A stretch of DNA of 64,000 bases from a bacterium (lineage in GTDB: Bacteria > UBA10199 > 2-02-FULL-44-16 > JAAZCA01), in the NCBI GenBank assembly GCA_963674695.2, contig CAXXGI010000003.1, positions 864,001 to 928,000 on the forward strand. Direction: 5' to 3'. Shown here piece by piece: positions 53,372 through 59,590 of this stretch. A model generated the notes under the pieces. The model searched no databases and was not told the origin of the DNA. It worked only from the letters and a program-made list of their open reading frames with translations. Position 1 is the first letter of the stretch, and each line of letters opens with the position of its first letter. Position numbers and translations under genes: made by a program.

Positions 53372-54523
53372 TTATTGTGATTCAACATACTTGAACGCAG
53401 CTTGTATATCATCTGTCTCGTGGCAACGTTGATATTGGCCAGCTTGATCCTTCGCCTTTTTCACAATATGTTTTAAGCCTGATTTCGACTTCTTTTGATA
53501 TATCCTCCAATGCCGGCCTTTCCATTCTGCTGCTTCATAGTATTCGCCCAAATCTTTCCAATCAGGCGTTGATGTACTTGTTAGCTTCATGAGAAATTGA
53601 AATGCCGTACTATATCTTTTGCTCGGATCTGCCTTTGTTACTTTTCCGATCATTCGTCGTATTGATGGAGAATAATACGGTTTCGGAGATACACCGTGCT
53701 TAAGAAGCTTCTCCTTTAACGTAAGTTCGGCGAGGCTTTCGCGAATAGCTACTGTCTGTTCATATTGACTCAGAGTTCGATATTCCCTTCCATTATTTCG
53801 AAGTTTTCTTAGGACTGATTTAGTTAAGTAATGTTCATCACTAGTAGGCATCGGACCATTTACAAGCTGATATAATATGAGACCTACCTGATAAAGGTCA
53901 GAGGAAATAGTGTAATGTTGAGAGTGCCACGCTTCAGAAGGGACATAGAGGTCAGAGTGCTTGGATGCATGAACATATTCAGCATCATCAGGCATCCTAC
54001 AAATGGAACCAAAGTCGGCAATTTTTGGTACGTCTCCATCCAGAAGGATATTATCTGGTTTTAGATCTCGATGAAGAAGCTTTTCTCGATGTAAATGTTC
54101 GACTCCATGTAATATATTTATCGCAATCCGAACGGCCTCCTGCTGGCCAACCATATCTTTTTCGATAACTTCCTGTAAGCTATCACCAGCTATCAATTCC
54201 ATCTGCAACAACACGTAGTCATCACCGTTTACCTTTATAGTCTCCACGTCATAAAGCTTAACAATATTTTGTGATACGGGCTCAGCTTCTATAGCTTGTC
54301 TCAACGCCCTTGGTTCTCTAAATATCAACTCATCATCTTCCTTAGGCAGATAAATAGCCTTTAAAAATCTAGGCTGCTGCAGATGAATATGCTGGGCTTT
54401 GTAAGAATATGAATTAGATCCACATGGCACATCATCAAGAGAGTCATACTTCCCAAGACGTTCAACTGCATCTTTTATTGCTTTTTTCGTCTCAACACTC
54501 ATGACAGAGTGCACCATGCGCAA
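53372..54523 (-). CDS. Hanks-type Ser/Thr protein kinase (AT-rich)
   Basis: FLKAI, EP, HRDLKPDN, ADFG, SDLYQVG; start uncertain. Confidence 0.9.
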   Translation of the reverse strand: MRMVHSVMSVETKKAIKDAVERLGKYDSLDDVPCGSNSYSYKAQHIHLQQPRFLKAIYLPKEDDELIFREPRALRQAIEAEPVSQNIVKLYDVETIKVNGDDYVLLQMELIAGDSLQEVIEKDMVGQQEAVRIAINILHGVEHLHREKLLHRDLKPDNILLDGDVPKIADFGSICRMPDDAEYVHASKHSDLYVPSEAWHSQHYTISSDLYQVGLILYQLVNGPMPTSDEHYLTKSVLRKLRNNGREYRTLSQYEQTVAIRESLAELTLKEKLLKHGVSPKPYYSPSIRRMIGKVTKADPSKRYSTAFQFLMKLTSTSTPDWKDLGEYYEAAEWKGRHWRIYQKKSKSGLKHIVKKAKDQAGQYQRCHETDDIQAAFKYVESQ

Positions 54524-54948
54524 ATTGCCGCTTTATACAAATATGCCGGCTCGATAGCTACATCATTGTTAAATGCCTTCTCAAAAGAACTGCCAGTCTC
54601 AGCGCTGATTTTTCGTTTTATAGCTGCAGCAATTGTTTGCGGCGATATGAGTTTGCATGCTATATTCAGTTCATGACAAGCCAACTCAGTGACTAATTCA
54701 CACTTTACCCTGAGTGGCTTACAAGCCTGAGTTGATTTAATGATGCCGACAACGTCGATCTGTTGAGAAGATAGTATTTCCTTAATTAGTTTTTGTAATT
54801 GTATCAAATTACCAACATCAGATTGTTCGGACTTGGGGAAGGTTATCTTTTTATCTGATAAGAAAAAAGTTCGCCCTTTTGATCTCTCCCCTTCAAGGCC
54901 GATCAATTGAAGATTATTTGAAACAATTTCTATGCCGAGTGTTCTCAT
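54499..54948 (-). CDS. DUF3010-like protein (probable RNase H/RuvC-like fold)
   Basis: MRTLGIEI start, IDVVGI, K-C-E, LISPQTI pattern recalled for DUF3010; GGAGG RBS. Confidence 0.55.
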   Translation of the reverse strand: MRTLGIEIVSNNLQLIGLEGERSKGRTFFLSDKKITFPKSEQSDVGNLIQLQKLIKEILSSQQIDVVGIIKSTQACKPLRVKCELVTELACHELNIACKLISPQTIAAAIKRKISAETGSSFEKAFNNDVAIEPAYLYKAAICAWCTLS

Positions 54949-54980
54949 GATCTCCTCCCATAGATGAAGCTCACCCTACC

Positions 54981-55062
54981 CCCTCCCCCCTCACTTGACA
55001 ATAATATAAATAGGGGAAAGGGCCGGAAAGGGCGTTATATTCGATTTGAGGGCCATTTTGGC
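54981..55062. repeat. Direct repeat 2, abutting stop of four-helix gene A
   Basis: Aligns with 52292-52377. Confidence 0.85.
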
Positions 55063-55064
55063 CC

Positions 55065-55400
55065 TCATTTCATGAGGGCCCATAGCATTTTGCTGATGGC
55101 TTCGAGCTGCGATTTGCGCGCCTGCGTCTGCGCATGCCCCGGCAAACCGAAGGCCTTCCAGAGATCAAGACAGGCTGCGACTTCAGCCGCGGATGCTCTC
55201 GCGATTCGGAAGAACCGGCGACGTTCTGCAGGAGAAGCCTTTGCATTCCCCTCGGCGATATTCAGAACAATGGATGCCATCGCCCGTTTGAGCTGATCGG
55301 TGAGATAGCCGTAGCCCCTCGGCCACTTGGCAACTTCTTTGCTGAGGTCCTCTGCCATCTTTACCGACCGCCCGTAACATTCCAGCTTTTCGTGAAGCAT
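55065..55400 (-). CDS. Four-helix-bundle protein A (23S rRNA IVS protein/Avd-like)
   Basis: HEKLECY...LTDQLKRAMASIVLNIAEG...RRRFFRIARASAAE; GAGGAGG RBS. Confidence 0.9.
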   Translation of the reverse strand: MLHEKLECYGRSVKMAEDLSKEVAKWPRGYGYLTDQLKRAMASIVLNIAEGNAKASPAERRRFFRIARASAAEVAACLDLWKAFGLPGHAQTQARKSQLEAISKMLWALMK

Positions 55401-55406
55401 TTGAAA

Positions 55407-55480
55407 CCTCCTCTGAATTGGTTTTTGTGTCGTCCTCCTACCCGGGCGAGAGGACGACACAAAAACCAATTCAAAGGAGG
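55407..55480. repeat. Palindrome joining the two four-helix genes
   Basis: 55414-55437 is the exact reverse complement of 55450-55473 (24 bp); 12-nt loop; arms extend through both RBSs. Confidence 0.95.
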
Positions 55481-55484
55481 AGAT

Positions 55485-55820
55485 ATGAATCACGAAAAGC
55501 TGGAATGTTGCAAGCAGTTGATGAGCGTCGCAGAGGACCTTGCAAAGAAGGTCGCCAAGTGGCCGAAGGGCAATGGTTTCCTGGCAGACCAACTCAAACG
55601 GGCGATGACCTCATCCATTCTCAACCTCGCCGAGGGCAATGGCAAGCGCGCCTCCAGCGCCGAGCGCCGGCGGTTCTTCGAAATCGCGCGGGGCTCTATC
55701 GCTGAGGTCATGGCCTGTCTGGATCTGGGGAAAGCTTTCGGGCTGCTCGAACAGAGCGAGCAGGAGCGATTCAAATCACTGCTCAAGGCGGCTTATGTCA
55801 AAATCGGGGCTCTGCCGTAG
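55485..55820 (+). CDS. Four-helix-bundle protein B (23S rRNA IVS protein/Avd-like)
   Basis: HEKLECC...LADQLKRAMTSSILNLAEG...RRRFFEIARGSIAE; AAGGAGG RBS. Confidence 0.9.
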   Translation: MNHEKLECCKQLMSVAEDLAKKVAKWPKGNGFLADQLKRAMTSSILNLAEGNGKRASSAERRRFFEIARGSIAEVMACLDLGKAFGLLEQSEQERFKSLLKAAYVKIGALP

Positions 55821-55845
55821 AGTCCCGCTCTCTTCGTTCCCAGCT

Positions 55846-55900
55846 CCGTTCACCGTTTACTGTTCACCGTTCTCGGGCTCTGTGCTCTGTTCTCCCTTCT
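55846..55900. repeat. Heptamer array downstream of four-helix gene B
   Basis: CCGTTCA CCGTTTA CTGTTCA CCGTTCT ... CTGTTCT CCCTTCT. Confidence 0.82.
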
Positions 55901-55910
55901 CTCGGGAACT

Positions 55911-55976
55911 GCGATGGTAAGGCGATGGTGAAGCGATGACAGAGCGATGATACATCGATGATACAGCGATTCAAAA
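55911..55976. repeat. 11-mer tandem array (6 units), inverted relative to 53036 and 53286 arrays
   Basis: GCGATGGTAAG GCGATGGTGAA GCGATGACAGA GCGATGATACA TCGATGATACA GCGATTCAAAA. Confidence 0.88.
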
Positions 55977-55980
55977 CAAG

Positions 55981-56012
55981 GAAACCCCCATGGATTTCTC
56001 CATGGGGGTTTC
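55981..56012 (-). terminator. rRNA operon terminator
   Basis: GAAACCCCCATGGA/TCCATGGGGGTTTC stem then CTTGTTTT on minus strand, after 5S. Confidence 0.85.
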
Positions 56013-56019
56013 AAATTAA

Positions 56020-56137
<118 letters not shown>

Positions 56138-56417
56138 AATCGTAATCTCCGTTGAACGAAGATAATAATAACAAAGAGTTTTCAAGTATTCATTTCGCGA
56201 TTCGACATCGAATGAGGCCTCCCTACATGCCTGCTCTCCGCCTTGCATATGACGGATCCTTCCACTGCCCGCCCCCGAAGGGACGGACAGAAAAATTATT
56301 GATCAAGCCGAACGGTCGATTAGTACGGGTAAGCTTCACACATTGCTGTGCTTCCACACCCCGCCTATCAATCTCGTAGTCTTCGAGTGACCTTCAGGGA
56401 GATCTTATCTTAGGGGC

Positions 56418-56450
<33 letters not shown>

Positions 56451-56508
56451 GTTCCACACATAGCTATCCGGCTGTGCCACTGGCGTGACAACCGGTGCAC
56501 TAGAGGTG

Positions 56509-56540
<32 letters not shown>

Positions 56541-56558
56541 CTCCCTTCAAATCTCCTA

Positions 56559-56653
<95 letters not shown>

Positions 56654-56656
56654 ATA

Positions 56657-56697
<41 letters not shown>

Positions 56698-56728
56698 GCA
56701 TCGTCGATGTGAACTCTTGGATGCGATA

Positions 56729-56759
<31 letters not shown>

Positions 56760-57215
56760 ATGAGCGACGGCCCGTCCACGTGGAACCGCCGGATCACTAT
56801 GACCTGCTTTCGCACCTGCTCGACTTGTAAGTCTCGCAGTCAAGCTCCCTTTTGCCATTACACTCGACGGCTGGTTTCCAATCAGCCTGAGGGAACCTTC
56901 GCGCGCCTCCGGTACTTTTTGGGAGGCAACCGCCCCAGTCAAACTACCCACCAGACAGTGTCCTTCTCCCGGATTACGGGAGGAAGTTAGAATTCCAGAA
57001 TGATCAGGGTGGTATTTCAAGGATGGCTCCACCGAAGCTAGCGCCCCAGTTTCAAAGCCTCCCACCTATCCTACACAAACCAACCCGAAATCCACTGCCA
57101 AGCTATAGTAAAGGTGCACAGGGTCTTTCCGTCCTGCCGCGGGTAGACAGTATCTGCACTGTCAATACAATTTCGCTGAGTCTCTTGTTGAGACAGTGTG
57201 GCAATCGTTACGCCA

Positions 57216-57299
<84 letters not shown>

Positions 57300-58005
57300 G
57301 TTCACTGCTTCGCATCCGAAGATGCTAACAACTTGCCTTAACCTTCCGGCACCGGGCAGGCGTCAGCCCCTATACGTCGTCTTGCGACTTTGCAGAGGCC
57401 TGTGTTTTTGATAAACAGTCGTCGCCACCTGGTATCTGCGACCCTCGGCCGCTCCACCCGTAAAGGGTTTCACCGCTAAGGGCATGCCTTCTCCCGAAGT
57501 TACGGCATCAACTTGCAGAGTTCCTTAACAAGAGTTCTCTCAAGCGCCTTGGGCTTCTCGCCCCGCCTACGTGTGTCCGTTTGCGGTACGGGCACCCCTG
57601 ACATCACGTCGAAGCTTTTCTTGGAAGCAGGAATCAGCCACTTTATGGGCAAATGCCCTCGTCATCACGCCTTAGGATTGACAACCGGATTTTCCTGGCT
57701 GCCTCCCTATACGTTTAAACCACCATCCAATAGGTGGATGACCTGCCCCGCTCCGTCCCTCCGACGCATAACATGCCAGAAGTGGTACAGGAATATTAAC
57801 CTGTTGACCATCGCCTACTCCCTTGGGACTCGGCTTAGGTCCCGACTAACCCTGGGCGGATTAACCTTCCCCAGGAAACCTTAGGCTTACGGCGAGCACG
57901 TTTCTCACGTGCTTTATCGCTACTTATGTCAGCATAAGCTCTTCCGATACCTCCAGCCGTCCTCGCAGTCGACCTTCACAGGCGTACGGAATGCTCCCCT
58001 ACCGC

Positions 58006-58168
58006 TCGTGCTCCGCACGAAAAAATCCTAAATTCTAAATCCAAATATCGAAACAAATCCTAAACTCCAATGACGAATGCCCAAAAACATTGGACATTGA
58101 ATATTCGTCATGAGGATTTGTTTTGGATTTCGGATTGAGTCATTAGAATTTATTCGTGCGAAGCACGA
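58006..58168 (-). other. Intervening sequence in 23S helix 45
   Basis: 163-nt AT-rich hairpin between GAAGCTGCGG and GGTAGGGGAGC; 7-mer arms. Confidence 0.9.
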
Positions 58169-58218
58169 ACCCGCAGCTTCGGCAGATAACTTGAGCCCCG
58201 TTGAATTTTCGGCGCAGA

Positions 58219-58283
<65 letters not shown>

Positions 58284-58409
58284 TTGTCTGTGCGCTTCCA
58301 CATCCTTTCCCACTTAGTTATCATTTGGGGGCCTTAGCTGGCGGTCTGGGCTGTTTCCCTCTCGACTACGGACTTTAGCACCCGCAGTCTGCCTCCCGAG
58401 CATTACTTC

Positions 58410-58447
<38 letters not shown>

Positions 58448-58448
58448 A

Positions 58449-58480
<32 letters not shown>

Positions 58481-59094
58481 GAGTATTCACTCGAGGCTAT
58501 ACCTCAATATATTTCGGGGAGAACCAGCTATCTCCAGGTTTGATTGGCCTTTCACCCCTATCCACAGTTCATCCGAGGATTTTTCAACATCCACCGGTTC
58601 GGACCTTCACGCAGTTTTACCTGCGCTTCATCCTGACCATGGATAGATCACACTGGTTTCGGGTCTACTCCCGGCAACTCAATCGCCCTATTCAGACTCG
58701 CTTTCGCTACGGCTACACCTTAACGGCTTAACCTTGCTGCCGAAAGTAACTCGCTGACTCATAATGCAAAAGGCACGCGGTCAGGCATTCCAGACCGAAG
58801 TCTGGCATAGCCCTCCCACTGCTTGTAGGCATGCGGTTTCAGGTTCTATTTCACTCCCCACCAGGGGTGCTTTTCACCTTTCCCTCACGGTACTAGTTCG
58901 CTATCGGTCGTTCGGTAGTATTTAGCCTTGGATGGTGGTCCACCCGGATTCCCACAGGATTTCTCGTGTCCCGTGGTACTTGGGATACTGCTAGAGTGTT
59001 CTTCGGTTTCGGTTACGCGGCTATCACGCCCTATGGCCGACCTTTCCAGATCGTTCACCTACCGTCGAACATCCCATGTTGCAGTCCCGCAACC

Positions 59095-59201
59095 CCCTGA
59101 CTACAGTTCAAAGTTTAAAGTTGAAAGTTGAAAGGAAGATCGTGATCATCAACGAAATTCCTTTAAACTTTTTTCCTTTTAACCTTCAACTGTAGTCAGG
59201 G
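59095..59201 (-). other. Heptamer-hairpin insertion in 23S domain I (near E. coli ~270)
   Basis: CCCTGACTACAGTT...AACTGTAGTCAGGG stem with AGTTGAA-type repeats between AGCCTAAACC and GGGGTTGCGGGAC. Confidence 0.88.
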
Positions 59202-59590
59202 TTTAGGCTGTTCCCCGTTCGCTCGCCGCTACTAGGGGAATCTCATTTTGATGTCTTTTCCTGCAGGTACTAAGATGGTTCAGTTCCCTGCGTTTGCCCC
59301 ATACGCCTATGTATTCAGCGCACAGTACCTGCCTATGAAAGCAGGTGGGTTGCCCCATTCGGAAATTCCCGGATCACAGTTTCCTTAGCAACTCCCCGAG
59401 ACTTATCGCAGCTAGGCACGTCCTTCATCGCCTCCGAACGCCAAGGCATCCGCCACACGCCCTTAATAACTTGACCAAAAGCCTAACCGATGATCGAAAT
59501 CATCGGAACCTGGCATTGTTTGAGAGACCTCATTCGAAATTGAATCGCGAATACTTTTCTCTTCTTTATGAAATTGTCAATGAGCTGACT

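Follow-up and report, generated by a model that had tools for sequence, protein, structure and literature searches.

A recurrent module of two divergent PF05635 genes joined by a central palindrome, with a candidate sigma-54 promoter antisense to the partner gene

PF05635 is a very large protein family: it takes in Avd of the retroelements, the open reading frame (ORF) of the intervening sequences (IVS) in 23S rRNA, and countless genes named only "four helix bundle protein". In this work, we analyse two genes of this family, here called A and B, that lie head to head about a palindrome at positions 55065-55820 of a 64,000-nucleotide (nt) stretch of bacterial DNA (assembly GCA_963674695.2, contig CAXXGI010000003.1, positions 864,001 to 928,000), hereafter the window. 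The pair belongs to a palindromic two-gene module that is present in many copies and that, as part of an overall explanation we place slightly on the probable side, is confined to one small, little-known phylum. We regard it as a real, undescribed variant of the 23S rRNA IVS protein cassette family; a full-text literature search on the family identifiers and further searches found no description of such pairs in the papers listed.

The IVS of Coxiella and Leptospira carry an ORF (S23p, or 23S_rRNA_IVP) of the same protein family (PMC4990558, PMC11270868). They share with the module the look of a small, selfish cassette built around a long self-complementary RNA that RNase III could cut. The module, however, lies outside the rRNA gene, about 200 nt past the one for 5S, and no rRNA is found near 16 related loci. 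An IVS sits inside a helix of 23S or 16S rRNA, whereas here the 23S gene occupies 56299-59476 (- strand) and the element ends at about 55975. An IVS consists of a single ORF looped out by a stem whose strands flank it, whereas the module has two head-to-head genes with the stem between them; in the window copy, inverted repeats that enclose the coding region are not seen, the only tail being on B's side and unfolded. The module also has a promoter consensus of its own.

Single PF05635 cassettes of other phyla, including those in cas operons (PMC3936711), belong to the same family, keep its R..S..N..E motif, and resemble the module in having simple-repeat flanks and in being inserted between host genes (gyrB-gyrA in loci L091 and L129). 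They differ in having inverted arrays of 6-nt repeats, with neither a central palindrome nor a partner gene (70/80 loci). Avd of the diversity-generating retroelements belongs to a homologous four-helix-bundle fold family and, according to PMC10053308 and PMC6182149, works with a structured RNA, but the pair has neither a reverse transcriptase nor a template or variable repeat beside it. The only RVT_1 match of this genome (C2:707298-707929) is on another contig with no PF05635 match nearby, and is itself divided between two reading frames, which are open for 154 and 326 amino acids. The last described process to be compared is quasipalindrome template-switch mutagenesis (PMC8604942, PMC8794818, PMC7202029), whose outcomes, homogenised arms and an inverted spacer, are both found among copies of the module. 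The module differs in that its 30-base-pair (bp) core continues into two 333-nt genes, which selection keeps distinct, and a gradient results.

Gene A (55065-55400, - strand) and gene B (55485-55820, + strand) each encode 111 amino acids, and both proteins score above the cut-offs of the PF05635 profile (A 75.5 bits, B 63.1 bits; cut-off 33.8) and of the TIGR02436 profile (75.9 and 63.5 bits; cut-off 24). BLASTP aligns the two with 67/110 identities (61%, E 8e-44), and the alignment contains all the peptides that an earlier note, made from the window's letters alone, had listed as shared (HEKLEC, VAKWP, DQLKRAM, AEGN, AERRRFF, CLDL and KAFGL); its description of two divergent 111-residue paralogues is thus borne out by the ORFs, the family matches and the identity between A and B. 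Of the residues in the family motif GxxRxxxSxxxNxxE (PMC3936711), 20 sequences share R39, S43 and E50 without exception and N47 almost without exception, the first G being Q36 here, and the R, S, N and E columns are also kept in 36-row alignments of A and of B. Gene A is of the type that we call A-type, with an N-terminus ML and a C-terminus SKMLWALMK; gene B is B-type, with an N-terminus MN, the peptides AEGNGKR and GSIAEV, and a C-terminus AYVKIGALP. The A-type signature is kept in 36/36 full pairs, and both genes are under purifying selection (ratio of nonsynonymous to synonymous substitution rates, dN/dS, 0.06-0.20). The solved chain 2gsc_A is matched by profile over residues 3-110 (E 2.2e-15, a comparison at the sequence level only); this sole solved relative is the uncharacterised XCC0516. 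Among the PADLOC and PHROGs profiles, no family is matched by either A or B. A complex prediction for A with B scored 0.21 against a mark of 0.32 and bears on neither outcome.

The spacer between the two start codons (55401-55484) is 84 nt long and is almost entirely occupied by an inverted repeat whose 31-nt arms are 97% complementary (30/31 bp) and enclose 12 nt. The left arm (55407-55437) contains CCTCC at 55407-55411, the complement of the ribosome-binding site of A, and the right arm (55450-55480) contains GGAGG at 55476-55480, which is the ribosome-binding site of B. The single mismatch is at 55413, and the perfect portion is 24 bp (55414-55437 with 55450-55473), so that the perfect repeat with a 12-nt loop and arms reaching both ribosome-binding sites was described correctly in the earlier note. 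The asymmetric centre (55438-55449) reads CTACCCGGGCGA and is part of a conserved motif, CTCC(C)RCCC-N3-4-TGAGAG. As RNA, 55390-55495 folds at -59.9 kcal/mol, compared with -23.4 +/- 3.2 for 200 shuffles (z -11.6; no shuffle was as good), and the whole 756 nt, whose folding had been proposed as a check, at -439.6, compared with -277.8 +/- 8.0 for 20 shuffles (z -20.1), which is far more stable than shuffled sequence. In a transcript of either direction, the 5' arm is pyrimidine-rich and the 3' arm, beside the start codon, is A/G-rich. This is how a translation leader looks, and the palindrome is best read as two 5' leaders set back to back. In addition, a small upstream ORF was noticed by eye in the right arm of a subset of copies only and was set aside.

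The arrangement is recurrent. In this genome (3.03 Mb) there are 19 PF05635 matches, including seven head-to-head pairs plus fragments; five of the pairs are intact (the window pair and p2-p5), and in two (p6 and p7) the centre is replaced by about 270 nt. The phylum, in the GTDB taxonomy, comprises 93 species genomes, all of one class, and 19/93 have a match at E<=1e-18. Among the 150 matches listed, 112 form 56 divergent pairs, 51/56 of which are spaced by 81-95 nt, and 18 further matches are at the start of a contig, where any partner would be out of view. At least one pair occurs in 15 genomes, with 12 pairs in genome G058 and 7 in G016. On metagenome contigs, 52/80 loci have the pair, 16/80 have no room for a partner, and 12/80 are single. 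In a genome collection, 10 of 80 loci have the pair, all of this lineage, and the remaining 70, from other phyla, are single genes without a long upstream hairpin; the viral contigs scanned yielded no relatives. From the genomes and metagenomes of this one small phylum we compiled 79 distinct pairs with palindromic spacers, which settles in the affirmative whether the arrangement recurs beyond the window.

The palindrome might be an assembly artefact, a false inverted join. Contigs from two public runs do break here, those of run X3 covering 55153-55387 and 55487-56100 and those of run X2 running up to 55166 and from 55488. Against this, a 6495-nt public contig of run X1, which may be the window's source sample, covers 54700-56086 without a difference and bridges the palindrome, so that the spanning on which the earlier note had made its reading depend is found. 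Moreover, the same architecture is present in the 79 distinct pairs from many independent assemblies. This rules out an artefact, to which we give a practically negligible probability. Note that one contig of run X2 (538 nt, depth 7) matches 55488-55995 and then carries 30 letters unlike the palindrome; the junction at 55488 could be an assembly-graph join or an alternative arrangement in that sample.

A central inverted repeat is found in 79/79 pairs. The stems are 9-37 bp long (ungapped, with at most two mismatches) and reach at least 16 bp in 67/79, the modal loop is 12 nt, and the spacers measure 80-91 nt in 39/40 pairs. The letters of the arms, by contrast with their pairing, differ from copy to copy, the identity of left arms between elements averaging 0.44. 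For covariation, we used a count anchored at the loop, over 40 elements and 20 loop-proximal positions: the Watson-Crick complementary fraction is 0.939 when both arms come from one element and 0.443 when they come from different ones, and 7495 arm changes are two-sided with pairing kept, compared with 1253 that are one-sided. With 39 spacers aligned by MAFFT, RNAalifold found no pairs, since the arms differ too much for an alignment.

The genes, in contrast, have kept their identities. The signatures that separate A from B (start ML/MFN versus MN, IAEGNAR versus LAEGNGK, ARAS versus xxGS, and the C-terminal helix; type-specific columns 12, 44, 48, 67, 68, 71, 100, 102-104 and 106) hold in three subfamilies, namely the p1-like copies, to which the window copy belongs, the p2-like copies, and a third, with about 42-50% identity to A. 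The duplication is therefore older than the subfamilies, and A and B are ancient, distinct types. Only in residues 1-40 is the identity within a pair higher than that between genes of the same type, and third-position identity within pairs declines from 0.89 in codons 1-10 to about 0.55 in codons 91-110. The gradient is one of conversion that radiates from the centre, the 5' parts of the two genes evolving in concert. Sister copies in one genome differ at synonymous sites by dS 0.19-0.43 and are therefore not fresh duplicates.

The motif of the centre is asymmetric and conserved, with a fixed C.A mismatch, and relative to A and B it is in forward orientation in 39 of the 79 pairs, reversed in 29 and ambiguous in 11. 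The loop is inverted between sister copies with otherwise the same arms (L055 and L060 in G016, L033 and L140 in G009), and in this genome between p4 and p2, p3 and p5. According to PMC8604942 and PMC8794818, template switching during replication makes arms alike and turns spacers round, and hairpins can arise and persist through it. Homogenised arms and an inverted spacer are thus two outcomes of this one process, and template switching accounts for the pattern of the palindrome; the arms would be perfect next to diverged genes because the copying is unopposed in the spacer and is opposed in the genes by type-specific selection. The observation in the earlier note that the arms are perfect despite the divergence of the genes stands, but concerted evolution, the gradient and the loop flips suffice for it, and no special explanation is needed.

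The same facts could be taken to mean that the palindrome has no function of its own: it would be the trace of an ancestral fold-back inverted duplication whose arms are kept alike by template switching or gene conversion, only the proteins being selected. The gradient from the centre, the occurrence of loop inversions, the randomness of the mismatches, and what PMC8604942 and PMC8794818 say of arms and spacers all agree with this. Yet the palindrome is kept in 79/79 pairs over three subfamilies whose proteins are only about 42-50% identical, its geometry is constant in spacer length and modal loop, conversion should have erased the fixed C.A mismatch of the conserved centre motif, and codons 1-26 are constrained at the nucleotide level, as described below. 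We consider this reading unlikely.

Another possibility is that the hairpin acts as DNA: the palindrome, or the whole foldback element, would extrude from single-stranded or supercoiled DNA as a hairpin or cruciform, and copying, recombination or movement of the element would take place there, with the asymmetric centre, in this reading, as a recognition or nicking site for an enzyme supplied in trans. This explanation would suit a multicopy element (seven pairs here, 12 in G058 and 7 in G016) with many copies at contig ends, whose deletion derivatives are themselves repeated (p6, p7 and C3:245895-246176) and of which a flank-only copy exists (C1:1028107-1028475). A centre motif that is conserved in either orientation fits a function independent of the mRNA that carries it, and the stem mismatches have no wobble bias. 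On the other hand, according to the ORF list and a profile search the element encodes only A and B, with no transposase, HUH or recombinase domain, and no relatives were found on the viral contigs scanned. Three alignments showed neither a target-site duplication nor a common insertion site, no systematic search having been made; neither the enzyme nor the defined ends with target-site duplication by which a transposable element is recognised were thus seen. The dS between sister copies indicates that the spread is not recent, and the frozen synonymous sites over codons 1-26 extend far past the site of the hairpin. In our judgement this reading is unlikely too, if a shade less so than that of a functionless palindrome.

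No sigma-70-like site was found in the spacer, and no divergent pair of sigma-70 promoters fits it, so that the ordinary divergent promoters that would have spoken against the earlier note's reading are not seen. The sigma-54 consensus is TGGCAC-N5-TTGCW, with GG and GC 10 nt apart, and transcription usually starts about 12 nt past the GC. A scan of the upstream regions of both genes gave promoter-like matches at one fixed place, namely in the 5' coding region of the partner gene, in antisense. In the window, TGGCAA-N5-TTGCT lies at 55328-55343 (+ strand), antisense in codons 20-25 of A and pointing through the palindrome toward B; GG at 55329-30 and GC at 55341-42 are 10 nt apart, as in sigma-54 promoters, and 10/11 consensus positions are matched. 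It differs from them in lying antisense within the codons of the divergent partner gene. A mirror motif, TGGCGA..TTGCA, can be read from the sequence at 55541-55557 (- strand), antisense in B and pointing toward A. The earlier note's statement that no clear promoter fits is thus correct for the spacer, which has no sigma-70-like pair, but it missed the consensus inside gene A.

To compare spacings, the strict motif TGGCA-Nx-TTGC was counted for x = 4-8 on both strands of A and B in 74 pairs. Antisense in A, toward B, it occurs 59 times with N6 and not at all with N4, N5, N7 or N8; antisense in B, toward A, it occurs 19 times with N6, four times with N7, and never with N4, N5 or N8. The sense strand of A has none at any of the five spacings, and the sense strand of B has only N7 (18 of 74, with 0 at N4, N5, N6 and N8), one base over the sigma-54 length, which is probably a coincidence of coding. 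In two subfamilies, the codons that contain the motif are not homologous: 41 p1-like pairs have it at 73 nt from the partner's start, whereas in the third subfamily the distance is 60 or 63 nt and 18 pairs have the motif in both directions. In 40 p1-like A genes, Ser20 is AGC in 36/36, Gly23 is GGT in 27/27 and Ala24 is GCC in 39/39, whereas every synonymous codon is used for Gly29, Gly31, Pro27 and Val13 of these genes. Codon entropy is 0.24-0.52 in codons 1-30, compared with 0.75-0.87 in codons 41-80, in A and B alike, and the synonymous sites around the mirror motif on B's side are frozen too, despite its spacing being off by one.

The genome contains rpoN (213.8 bits) and 13 Sigma54_activat matches above 100 bits, and the motif occurs 80 times genome-wide at the sigma-54 spacing, compared with 14-27 times at four control spacings; its commonest form, TGGCACGCTCCTTGCTT, resembles the motif of the p1-like elements. 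Taken together, these results suggest to us that, with fairly good probability, a sigma-54 promoter works for B. As an aside, about 80 sites, many of them TGGCACGCTCCTTGCTT, and at least 10 strong activator ATPases make sigma-54 control look more prominent than is usual in a genome of 3 Mb.

Other candidate promoters were tried and set aside. A weak sigma-70-like match, CTGCCA-17-TAACAT (55352-55380), is fixed in 26/74 upstream regions, but it derives from conserved Cys-Tyr codons and was not used. A sigma-70-like site at 55974..55947, considered as a promoter for A, has a counterpart at a similar place in only few copies and is not conserved.

In a further reading, a dimeric regulator, perhaps formed by the A and B proteins, would bind the double-stranded palindrome as its operator and control two ordinary divergent promoters in the spacer. 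In favour of this, the site is palindromic and lies between divergent genes, and both the centre and the upper part of the stem are conserved. Against it, the arms differ freely among copies with near-identical proteins (p2, p3 and p5; dN 0.01-0.02), and the identity of left arms between elements is low on average. The spacer has no sigma-70-like promoter, and the only positionally conserved promoter-like sites are inside the partner gene. We hold this explanation to be quite improbable.

The reading that we prefer, and to which we assign a little more belief than doubt, is a module in which the 5' end of each gene serves as the promoter and leader of its partner, expression being gated by a hairpin and the palindrome being maintained by template switching. 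In this scheme, the first 26 or so codons of each gene would double, on the opposite strand, as the partner's promoter and transcribed leader. The sigma-54-type promoter within A would fire across the palindrome into B, and, by the 12-nt rule, the predicted leader of B would extend over about 131 nt (55354-55484, + strand), comprising the whole palindrome together with stretches complementary to codons 1-15 of A and to its ribosome-binding site. The segment 55354-55545 folds at -102.1 kcal/mol (z -12.8) into a nearly continuous stem of about 70 bp that holds the ribosome-binding site, the AUG and the first dozen codons of B. In the mRNA of B, the leader and the first codons of the gene would thus form a hairpin that buries the start region, and translation would then require the duplex to be cleaved or opened, that is, cut, for which RNase III is the obvious candidate, or melted. 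RNase III is a natural candidate, as in the intervening sequences from which the family has its name (PMC4990558). The leader, being perfectly antisense to the start region of A, might couple or oppose the expression of A and B. Template switching or conversion within the palindrome would recopy one arm onto the other and occasionally flip the loop, and selection for A-specific and B-specific residues would resist conversion inside the genes.

The earlier note had proposed that a transcript across the centre folds into a hairpin of about 750 nt that hides its ribosome-binding site. The predicted folds uphold a long, site-hiding hairpin, but not its length: since the sigma-54 consensus is inside A, the relevant RNA is probably a leader hairpin of about 190 nt. 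Among the readings that the note suggested, an RNase III-gated switch and a hairpin recombination site are possible, and an orientation-independent cassette is possible but not needed; the ORFs next to the copies point either way.

Several observations weigh against the preferred reading. The 49 non-Watson-Crick cells of the stems show no preference for G-U (11 GT/TG and 11 CA/AC), which lends no support to a constraint that acts on the RNA of one strand, and the model does not account for the conserved asymmetric centre motif. In the window copy and other p1-like copies, the motif toward A is GG-N11-GC, one base off the rule. A conserved promoter in the tails was not found either, sigma-70-like matches being scattered over 12/71 tails and sigma-54-like matches present in 0/71. 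In this genome, the sigma-54 consensus is absent from all four p2-like pairs (8/11 positions at best), which are nevertheless under purifying selection, and 14/74 pairs carry no motif. Because the motif lies within coding sequence, part of its conservation is amino-acid conservation. Finally, promoter use, transcription start, hairpin gating, processing by RNase III and hetero-oligomer formation are steps that we infer from sequence, which for the promoter, its start site and the processing counts against the reading. We regard the anatomy and evolution of the module as well supported and its mechanism of expression as plausible: the element behaves like a template-switched quasipalindrome and probably also like a sigma-54 unit with a structured leader.

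A bolder version may be mentioned, although we find it improbable as a whole. In this version, each gene would conceal, on its antisense strand, a promoter for the other, and the two resulting leaders would be both self-hairpinned and fully complementary to each other, so that only one paralogue is translated at a time; RNase III would clear the duplex, the flipped centre would bias which paralogue wins, and the foldback unit would spread as DNA hairpins without a transposase. If true, the module would be a genetic toggle complete in itself and a palindromic gene cassette of a new kind.

Under the preferred reading, the module offers a testable handle on PF05635, in the form of a conserved heterotypic pair, a probable signal-dependent sigma-54 promoter, and a leader hairpin of a size suited to RNase III. 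It would also be an unusually clean natural case of a gene pair in which the opposite strand of each member supplies the promoter and leader of the other, and of a palindrome kept perfect by template switching while the flanking paralogues are held apart by selection, with loop inversion recorded many times among the copies.

The extent of the element can be estimated from its relatives. In p1-like copies, homology stops at the stop codon of A, where a small GC-rich hairpin (55047-55067) overlaps the stop codon in the window and marks the left limit of homology to related copies, and runs 160-190 nt past the stop codon of B. The downstream tail of B (55821-55975) contains first 7-nt tandem repeats (55846-55872, 3.9 copies) and then 11-nt tandem repeats (55911-55970, 5.5 copies); the homology passes through both, and the tail is kept in p1-like copies of other genomes. 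By this comparison, the window copy would extend from about 55047 to about 55975. The tail shows no RNA fold beyond that of shuffles (z 1.5 and 0.06). In the other subfamilies, simple-repeat tails follow both genes and are mutually inverted, so that the whole unit is a nested palindrome. At L033 (G009), a simple-repeat hairpin of about 110 nt, consisting of a tail-type array, a loop and the complementary array, flanks the pair as a direct repeat, and this pair may sit within a duplicated gene-less hairpin. Inverted 6-nt tandem-repeat arrays on both sides were also seen around the single cassettes of other phyla at L070, L078, L086, L093, L104, L131, L066, L091 and L129; they are of the types CGTAAT, CGTGAT or CGTTGT, or AAATCG in Opitutales, and the flank pattern looks general for PF05635.

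This genome also contains three copies of a p2-type derivative (C3:56429-57165, C3:796474-797216 and C3:245895-246176), in which the 5' halves of both genes and the palindrome are swapped for about 270 nt. The insert includes a repeat of about 75 nt that is found at more than 15 other sites of the genome. At C1:1028107-1028475, both p2-type flanks are about 150 nt apart with no genes between them, which makes this site a gene-less remnant or an empty form.

In the window, the pair adjoins the only rRNA operon of the genome, which runs on the - strand in the order 16S, two tRNAs, 23S and 5S. The 5S gene is at 56020-56136 (- strand), and a terminator-like hairpin of the operon (55981-56012, - strand) forms the right border of the element; A has the orientation of the operon. 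Adjacency to rRNA was considered as a conserved feature and rejected, there being no Rfam match in 16 related loci and seven pairs for a single rRNA operon in this genome. Hitch-hiking on host transcription in a fixed orientation is likewise unsupported: the nearest ORFs lie on the - and + strands in ratios of 16:11 on A's side and 18:14 on B's side, by a crude count of stop-to-stop ORFs of at least 100 amino acids. Directly downstream of A and in the same direction, 53372-54948 (- strand) contains an ORF with a weak DUF3010-like match (E 0.0025) and the gene of a 383-residue Ser/Thr protein kinase (Pkinase, E 6e-36).

On the other side, the 23S gene match spans 3178 nt, compared with a model of 2925 positions. 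The gene holds two self-complementary, AT-rich inserts of short repeats (58006-58168 and 59095-59201, - strand) that have no ORF. They look like intervening-sequence hairpins, and parts of them resemble repeats at C3:244112 and C1:572611.

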